The position numbers were made by a program, and so were the translations under genes. 64,000 bases of DNA from a virus, in the IMG/VR virus record IMGVR_UViG_3300035105_000276, positions 63,134-127,133 of that record, one strand, 5' to 3'. Below are positions 57,806 through 58,102 of this stretch, piece by piece. Below the pieces are notes generated by a model. It had not been told where the DNA came from. It did not search any database and worked only from the letters and a program-made list of their open reading frames with translations. Every line of letters begins with the position of its first letter. Within the stretch, counting starts at the first letter, position 1.

Positions 57806-58102
57806 ATGTCAAGCCAGGTAGCCGGACATGGGGATTTGTTCATAGGATCCTGTGCACCGTGTTTAGGGGCTCAGGTTACAGGCATTTTGATGGGGGATGC
57901 CTCCAGTGTTCTGGTGAACGGCAAGAAAGCGTCCCTTATACAAGGGATAGGCATTGGCCTGTGAGGCCATGTGACTGTCATTGTGGGAGGTTCTTCCACA
58001 GTCAATGCAGAAGGCAGGAAGCTGGTCCGGAGAGGGGATCGCGTCGAAAACAGTATCTCCGGGACTATAATAACCGGTTCTCCCAATGTGTTTTCCGGGT
58101 GA
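57806..58102 (+). CDS. PAAR-like spike tip protein (98 aa) with in-frame TGA at codon 53 (candidate selenocysteine)
   Basis: VAGHGD..C..C...SVLVNGKK...GL*GH...GSSTVNAEGRKLVRRGD...G.I.TGSPNVF; missed by the ORF track. Confidence 0.8.
57972..58004 (+). promoter_or_regulatory. Candidate bacterial SECIS hairpin
   Basis: TGACTG/CAGTCA and TGGGAG/CTTCCA stems, G-led apical loop ~25 nt after UGA. Confidence 0.5.

Follow-up and report, generated by a model that had tools for sequence, protein, structure and literature searches.

The window analysed here is a 64,000-nucleotide (nt) stretch of viral DNA, bases 63134-127133 and thus the second half of the 127,133-bp linear IMG/VR record IMGVR_UViG_3300035105_000276, for which the CheckV completeness estimate was 71%. 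The source is a large contractile-tailed phage. Its tail genes include a PAAR-repeat spike-tip gene that is interrupted by one in-frame TGA. This TGA is a candidate selenocysteine (Sec) codon, and it is followed by a hairpin that is a candidate selenocysteine insertion sequence (SECIS). The following features were located, with coordinates referring to the window:

57806-58102 (+): PAAR-repeat spike-tip gene; 98 codons plus terminal TGA, one in-frame TGA at codon 53; identified by translation, PF05488, phrog_281, AlphaFold2 and fold matches
57962-57964 (+): in-frame TGA, codon 53, candidate Sec codon; identified by translation, in the Cys column of C-G-H, reproduced in sequencing runs X1 and X7
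57980-58002 (+): candidate SECIS hairpin; 10-bp stem 57980-57989 / 57993-58002, loop GUU 57990-57992; in frame, codons 59-66
57955-57969 (+): small 6-bp hairpin UGGCCU-GUG-AGGCCA, the loop of which holds the U and G of the UGA; present in the minimum free energy (MFE) and centroid structures
57971-58102 (+): C-terminal half as gene callers annotate it; GTG start, 43 amino acids (aa), GAGG 4 nt upstream; without residues 53-55
56901-57794 (+): 297-aa gene, presumed central spike by gene order only; no family match
54127-56046 (+): tail sheath, 639 aa; weak match to phrog_279 (E 0.0016), 28-33% identity to structural proteins of ~180-kb phages

The spike-tip gene and its conserved cysteine position

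The translation of 57806-58102 (+) was MSSQVAGHGDLFIGSCAPCLGAQVTGILMGDASSVLVNGKKASLIQGIGIGL*GHVTVIVGGSSTVNAEGRKLVRRGDRVENSISGTIITGSPNVFSG* (MSSQ...GIGL*GHVTV...VFSG*), with the TGA at 57962-57964 as the sole internal stop. A preliminary description of this DNA, made from the letters alone, had recognised a complete 98-codon PAAR-like frame broken solely by this TGA in the context GL-*-GH. Translation, PF05488 and phrog_281 all confirmed it. With Cys set at residue 53, the product scored 31.2 bits (cut-off 27) with the Pfam family PAAR_motif (PF05488) over residues 26-81, a stretch that includes the TGA. The read-through product matched phrog_281 with an E-value of 1.2e-9. AlphaFold2, run with a 30-sequence alignment, predicted a single compact domain for it, with a mean predicted local distance difference test (pLDDT) score of 97.1 and a predicted template modelling (pTM) score of 0.87. 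In the Foldseek comparison with the PDB, ranks 1-6 were all PAAR spike tips with a probability of 1.00 each, and no E-value was <=0.001. These six best matches were c1882, T4 gp5.4 (TM 0.77), VCA0105, phiKZ gp163.1 and the baseplates of Klebsiella phage KP1 and P1. The predicted fold was consistent with the PAAR cone of three beta-hairpins known from gp5.4 and VCA0105. The gene showed no second lesion, with no frameshift and 45 intact codons past the TGA. It presumably encodes the single PAAR cone that would cap the tail spike. The two halves are recorded as separate proteins, P0004 and P0006, the C-terminal one also as P0131.

Relatives of the product were collected in an exhaustive HMMER search of 1.84 billion representatives, which returned 128 proteins at E <=0.001. 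Two of these were the halves of the gene itself and two more were long multidomain proteins; without these four, 124 relatives entered the alignment. P0005 was the best full-length relative with 54% identity. The column of the TGA was Cys in 117 of the 124 relatives, and the next two columns were Gly (115/124) and His (110/124, with Cys in 4/124). Column 16 was Cys in 112/124, and columns 19/20 comprised 46 Cys and 89 His. C16, C19 and H55 are present in the phage protein, and its fourth presumed ligand position is the UGA codon. Read by eye, residue 53 in one of the first two pseudo-repeats (QGIGIGLx) corresponds in position to C16 in the other (GDLFIGSC). Because the interchange of Cys and His at fixed columns (16, 19/20 and 55) is typical of metal ligands, we infer from the alignment that residue 53 would join C16, C19 and H55 in a set of four metal ligands at the tip of the cone. 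PAAR tips are described as holding one Zn or Fe via four apex His/Cys residues that are needed for folding or function (PMC10715212; PMC12407873).

The PAAR gene starts 12 nt past the stop of the 297-aa gene. The preliminary description had placed it behind a spike gene; its position was correct, while the identity of the 297-aa product as the central spike is presumed, by gene order. No family match was obtained for this protein in Pfam, PHROG or further family searches. The order in the window is sheath, 223 aa, 297 aa and PAAR. Salmonella phage Arash and Vibrio phage D69 have an order of sheath, ~230 aa, spike and PAAR, and their sheaths are 28-33% identical to that of the present phage.

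Origin of the in-frame TGA

This DNA was found in 16 public sequencing runs, all of them oil-field metagenomes of 2020, and all 16 may belong to one campaign. The contigs of four runs (X1, X7, X8 and X9) were compared over positions 49000-60000. Run X1, possibly the source sample, held the whole stretch in one 45,835-bp contig with a depth of 30.7 and 0 differences. Run X7, from another sample, contributed a 3,797-bp contig with a depth of 7, which covered 56632-60000 with 0 differences. Across these 11 kb, no indels were present in the contigs of any of the four runs. There was no alternative base at 57962-57964 in the run contigs, which drop rare variants. The mean depths of X8 and X9 over the bin 57808-58174 were 1.22 and 0.47, too thin for inference at the PAAR gene. 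Records of the exact 52-aa N-terminal product came from 11 contigs, those of the 43-aa C-terminal one from 3 + 5 contigs.

A sequencing error from TGC/TGT to TGA, which the preliminary description had entered as a caveat, was refuted by these data, as independent contigs from two samples reproduce the TGA. A read-level check had also been suggested there, and the assembled contigs of X1 and X7 both gave TGA. A variant genetic code was considered as well. With code 11, the contig comprised 120 non-overlapping open reading frames (ORFs) of >=80 aa, and 54 of them were terminated by TGA, which was the commonest ordinary stop; the terminal stop of the PAAR gene is also TGA. The coding density was 0.887 with code 11 and 0.900 with TGA as sense. 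Since TGA is an ordinary stop here, no code change explains the codon. Both a genome-wide use of UGA as sense (code 4 or 25) and a sequencing or assembly error were consequently rejected as next to impossible. A contig-wide scan for other TGA-interrupted genes was uninformative. It yielded same-frame neighbour pairs with 3 TGA, 1 TAG and 6 TAA, all of them adjacent genes of the ordinary kind; the PAAR pair was not among them, as a longer antisense ORF had displaced it.

A real TGA may still be a defect. A recent mutation from TGY to TGA could have knocked out the PAAR gene, with a phage that assembles and infects without the tip and a hairpin that is a by-product of coding for ...VIVGGSSTV.... 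Such a tolerated nonsense allele is less likely than not in our assessment, yet it is the main and a serious rival of the selenocysteine reading. The stop falls on the most conserved Cys of the 98 codons, no further lesion has accumulated in the 45 codons past it, and a wild-type allele was absent from both samples at depths of 31 and 7, in contigs that hide rare variants. A possibly frameshifted gene at 2143-3314 (-) speaks for this explanation, as it hints at some gene decay.

The latter region may be one of the "two other reading-frame lesions" of the preliminary description, for which two candidate places were found. At 2143-3314 (-), three overlapping ORFs (228, 125 and 106 aa) lie in different frames; of the 253 positions of phrog_839, the match of the middle ORF covers 77-174 only. 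It may be a frameshifted or a programmed-frameshift gene. At 50008-50532 (+), three short ORFs of 55, 54 and 69 aa in alternating frames are situated between an acidic 200-aa ORF and a capsid-module gene. They had no family match, and no indel was present there in the contigs of the four runs.

Two further differences between the runs were observed near the PAAR gene. The sheath gene showed an A-to-G change at 54780 (+) at full depth in runs X8 and X9 that was absent from X1 and X7, so at least two strains of the phage were present among the samples. At 59206-59412 (+), the start of a 1101-aa gene, a second, diverged contig was present in each of the runs X1, X7 and X8. These contigs carried 11 differences in 77 nt and a 97-nt segment swapped for 100 other letters, and their ends were loose on either side. 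The pattern points to a variable cassette at the N-terminus of a presumed tape-measure-like protein, or to a related stretch there that stems from another phage.

Hairpin, second lineage and candidate host

The stem of the candidate SECIS hairpin begins 15 nt after the UGA. The loop G is located 28 nt from the U of the UGA, with 25 nt between UGA and G. A hairpin at 57972-58004 with a G-led loop ~25 nt downstream had been described before. The hairpin is real and the 25 nt to the G are correct; the limits were close, the stem itself comprising 57980-58002. The bacterial SECIS (bSECIS) consensus, reportedly defined by Zhang and Gladyshev in 2005, is a hairpin just 3' of the UGA with a G in the apical loop. 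In the SECIS of Escherichia coli fdhF, contacts are made by G23/U24.

Hairpins were evaluated with an operational SECIS test that demanded >=7 contiguous pairs, a loop of 3-6 nt, a G in the first two loop bases and a loop start at +20 to +30. In the 127-kb contig, 1.0% of 84,716 positions passed, or 0.13% with >=10 bp, and 3.8% of the 42-nt windows folded as stably. The whole 76-nt stretch was not unusually stable (z -0.73). The test was passed by 11 of 12 Sec-UGA sites that were located by homology in three genomes of Desulfobacteraceae, the candidate host family, and that comprised 3 SelD and 9 formate dehydrogenase (Fdh) sites. The Sec hairpins of this lineage had 7-9-bp stems and G-led 3- or 5-nt loops (GUC, GGC, GGA, GGUCU and GGGCU) at +21 to +26. 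In the SelD genes L116, L117 and L118, the in-frame TGA lies within ...K(A/G)AG*A..., and the hairpin behind it has a stem of 7-8 bp and a loop of 3 nt (GUC, GGC or GGA), with the loop G exactly 23 nt from the U of the UGA. The preliminary description had also proposed a look at homologues for a conserved hairpin. DNA was readable for two Cys-type homologues, L086 and L155, the latter being the only homologue found with P0005 as the query in viral contigs, where it lies in a 285-kb contig; it served as a hairpin control. Neither had such a hairpin after the Cys codon, and the MFE values over 60 nt were -6.3 and -9.1 versus -18.1 in the phage.

Besides the gene's own half, two N-terminal fragments were present among the hits, P0103 and P0015. 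P0103, with 54 aa and 46% identity, occurs on five Joint Genome Institute (JGI) contigs, the longest of which has 4,286 bp, and it ends one alignment column before the conserved Cys. P0015, on a 583-bp contig, ends seven residues beyond it. Judged by its position, the end of P0103 is probably a stop, which would be a TGA with a frame that continues after it. A second lineage appears to halt at the same codon as the phage PAAR. Gene calling in a selenoprotein family would leave just such a pattern, with diverged lineages that stop at one shared codon, and two independent knockouts would hardly produce it; the end of P0103 at this column therefore also counts against a nonsense allele.

The same column bears on expression of the PAAR gene without a SECIS, which we regard as quite improbable in both of its versions. 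In one, near-cognate read-through of the UGA would supply the one PAAR per virion; with one PAAR per spike, a level of ~1% could be enough. Near-cognate insertion at UGA usually yields Trp, which cannot replace a metal ligand. In the other, the gene would be truly split into a 52-aa and a 43-aa product that associate non-covalently, the second starting from a restart at GTG 57971. The GAGG 4 nt before this GTG and the annotation of both halves by gene callers agree with a split, yet residues 53-55 would be deleted and with them two of the four presumed ligands. The exact coincidence of stop and Cys in two lineages is left unexplained by both versions.

Further relatives were searched for in several collections. 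The preliminary description had suggested tblastn for homologues with Cys or TGA at this position. The Cys type was abundant, as seen in the HMMER alignment, whereas tblastn against GenBank phages gave no match and no relative with a visible TGA was detected. In a viral contig collection, there was no match for the spike protein, P0103, P0004 or the PAAR alignment profile. In metagenome contigs, P0103 gave no match and P0002 led to 4 loci, the PAARs of which were either of the ordinary Cys type or unrelated. When P0002, P0103 and P0006 were used in word-index searches of proteins, the output was one distant match or the query alone. A degenerate motif with TGA had 0 matches in the viral contigs and 1 with TGY, apparently by chance in a high-GC ORF; this motif was too strict.

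The candidate host was derived from a mobile element. The phage IscB was 69-76% identical to elements present in many copies in Desulfobacter latus and in Desulfobacteraceae metagenome-assembled genomes (MAGs), and <=61% identical to those elsewhere, except for a 2.5-kb contig labelled Bathyarchaeota. We infer from IscB similarity alone that the host would be a Sec-using Desulfobacteraceae-like bacterium, at the level of lineage and not of species. All three candidate-lineage genomes (3/3) contained SelA, SelB, a tRNA-Sec above the gathering score and a SelD with one in-frame TGA. If the host is of this lineage, it would use selenocysteine. The presence of selABC in the host, on which the preliminary description had made its proposal depend, hence holds for the candidate lineage, with the host itself assigned by IscB similarity.

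The 127-kb phage contig had no SelA, no tRNA according to ARAGORN and no tRNA-Sec at E up to 1. A further explanation is a SelB- and hairpin-dependent recoding of the UGA to Cys, carried out by a tRNA(Cys) of a non-canonical type known from some anaerobes, the anticodon of which is UCA. The explanation draws on the same sequence evidence as selenocysteine and would restore the normal Cys of the family; the phage contig encodes no tRNA at all, and we consider recoding to Cys very improbable.

Several other elements of the window were recorded alongside. Two IscB genes (RRXRR plus HNH) lie at 30722-32236 (-) and 11040-12731 (-), and each is followed by a HEARO (omega) RNA, with 150 and 102 bits. 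In a 136-nt tRNA-like RNA at 13979-14114 (-), the D arm resembles that of tRNA-Leu and the loop of the T arm is UUCAAAU. The acceptor stem of 7 bp and the T stem of 6 bp amount to 13 stacked pairs, and a region of ~80 nt replaces the anticodon and variable arms. Thirteen stacked acceptor and T-stem pairs are also a feature of tRNA-Sec. This RNA was not counted as Sec machinery, as no UCA was seen in a loop by eye, no Rfam tRNA or tRNA-Sec match was obtained and ARAGORN made a forced low-score call. The large subunit of ribonucleotide reductase (1143 aa) is encoded at 14139-17570 (-). It is interrupted by a LAGLIDADG domain, presumably an intein, and has a C-terminal TSCPD domain. At 32685-34571 (+), an RNA-polymerase beta-prime-like protein of 628 aa matched RNA polymerase Rpb1 domain 5, which is consistent with a piece of a phage multisubunit RNA polymerase. 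Multisubunit RNA polymerase pieces of this kind are known from jumbo phages.

Readings of codon 53 and comparison with known systems

That UGA codon 53 of the PAAR gene is read as selenocysteine has, in our judgement, an even chance of being correct. The codon would be read by SelB and Sec-tRNA(Sec) of the host, and SelB would be recruited by the 10-bp GUU-loop hairpin, inside the frame and 15 nt past the UGA, in the standard bacterial arrangement. Residue 53 would then hold a metal ion together with C16, C19 and H55, tying the three hairpin tips together, and selenium would end up in the virion. PAAR-capped spikes carry a single PAAR per virion. With one PAAR per virion, even inefficient recoding would be sufficient. 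The ligand-Cys position, the intact one-domain frame, the suitable hairpin, the apparent second lineage, the reproducible TGA and the plausible Sec-using host all fit selenocysteine. The preliminary description had likewise proposed that host SelA/B/C put Sec into a metal site of the virion. Of this proposal, the Cys position, the intact frame, a SECIS-like hairpin and a Sec-capable candidate lineage stood, whereas the hairpin turned out to be partly peptide-driven.

A number of observations weigh against selenocysteine. Among synonymous recodings of the same 17 codons (n=5000, phage codon usage), 10.7% passed the SECIS test, 3.7% had >=10 bp and 4.3% were as stable. The peptide ...VIVGGSSTV... 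by itself favours a hairpin because its Gly-Gly and Ser-Ser codons can pair. The SECIS criterion was fixed only after the phage and SelD hairpins were known. The phage loop G at +28 lies 2 nt outside the range of +21 to +26 of the 12 host-lineage sites, and no Rfam SECIS family was matched, even at E 10. Altogether, the hairpin is consistent with a SECIS, with a likelihood ratio of about 8, not 80. The assignment of the host is indirect, as is that of the stop in P0103. The best IscB DNA match among 161 genomes of Desulfobacteraceae was 73%, and IscB belongs to a mobile element. PAAR-profile matches with an in-frame TGA numbered 0/40 in 401 Desulfobacterales genomes and 0/26 in 401 Desulfobacterota genomes. 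Because none of these 66 PAAR matches had an in-frame TGA, UGA-PAARs are uncommon in those Desulfobacterota cellular genomes. The neighbours of these matches shared nothing with the phage tail genes, and no prophage link was found. Selenocysteine is established as a ligand of Ni, Mo and W. To our knowledge, no Sec is known as a purely structural metal ligand.

Several of these points at the same time favour the tolerated nonsense allele, namely the share of recodings with a SECIS-like hairpin, the lack of an Rfam SECIS match and the result of 0/66 in about 800 Desulfobacterota genomes. The origin of all holders from oil-field metagenomes of 2020 also belongs on this side of the balance, as a defective allele could be fixed in one population. 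Most directly, the T4 amber mutant 5.4am, which lacks the PAAR protein, showed normal assembly, plaques and plating efficiency (PMC12407873). The same mutant was selected against, losing ~1.55-fold per growth cycle in competition, and did not infect deep-rough lipopolysaccharide (LPS) mutants (PMC12407873). Because of this loss, nonsense alleles of the tip gene should not persist.

Extended beyond this gene, the selenocysteine reading would mean that phages of Sec-using anaerobes put selenocysteine into the metal-binding apex of the spike tip, with the present phage as one instance and the P0103 lineage as a second. We regard this wider statement as evenly poised between right and wrong. If true, it would be the first selenoprotein of a bacteriophage particle, as the selenoproteome otherwise comprises cellular proteins and two eukaryotic-virus enzymes in the literature searched. 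Sec would bind a structural metal at the point with which a contractile injection machine pierces membranes, unlike its known catalytic uses. Infectivity would be tied to SelABCD of the host and to the selenium supply, which is testable in sulfate-reducing communities, for example in oil reservoirs. Because gene callers split UGA-interrupted genes into two "hypothetical proteins" (here P0004 and P0006), the class would be invisible in protein databases.

A full-text search of the literature found no phage or PAAR selenoprotein. The words phage, PAAR and viral do not occur in the main text of BSepDB (2026), the family lists of which may sit in supplements. A 2016 comparative-genomics paper has no mention of phages, with "phage" occurring only within "phagedenis". 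In the accessible part of a 2021 review of viral recoding, only poxvirus glutathione peroxidases are named.

Compared with solved PAAR tips, namely T4 gp5.4 (4KU0), E. coli c1882 (4JIW), Vibrio cholerae VCA0105 (4JIV) and phiKZ gp163.1 (6P1Z), the phage protein shares the length of ~95-100 aa, the cone fold (TM 0.59-0.78) and a presumed Cys/His tip set. The PAAR gene is located directly behind the presumed spike gene, as in Salmonella phage Arash, where it is gp239. The phage protein differs from the solved PAARs in having UGA instead of TGY as a presumed ligand codon, and its identity to them is 15-20%. The presumed ligand set is Cys-rich (C16, C19, X53 and H55), whereas gp5.4 and VCA0105 have three His and one Cys. 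The T4 gene 5.4 amber mutant is a parallel case of a phage PAAR gene with an internal stop, and its particles still assemble (PMC12407873). There, a laboratory amber replaced codon 6 (tyrosine), while here a UGA is found at a presumed metal-ligand Cys and is followed by a hairpin.

With bacterial Sec-UGA/SECIS pairs, of which E. coli fdhF is the prototype and the SelD and Fdh genes of Desulfobacteraceae are further examples, the phage gene shares a UGA where homologues have Cys, a hairpin within the ORF and a G-led loop. In stem length and in its 3-nt loop, the hairpin is similar to those of SelD and Fdh in the candidate host family. Bacterial selenoproteins are cellular and mostly redox enzymes, in contrast to a phage virion protein with a presumed structural metal ligand. 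The dependence of a virus on the Sec machinery of its host has a parallel in the glutathione peroxidases of molluscum contagiosum and fowlpox virus. The SECIS of the fowlpox enzyme is described as lying in the coding region (PMC8310308). The poxvirus enzymes are captured cellular enzymes of eukaryotic viruses, whereas the spike tip would be a structural protein native to a bacteriophage, and its signal would be of the bacterial type.

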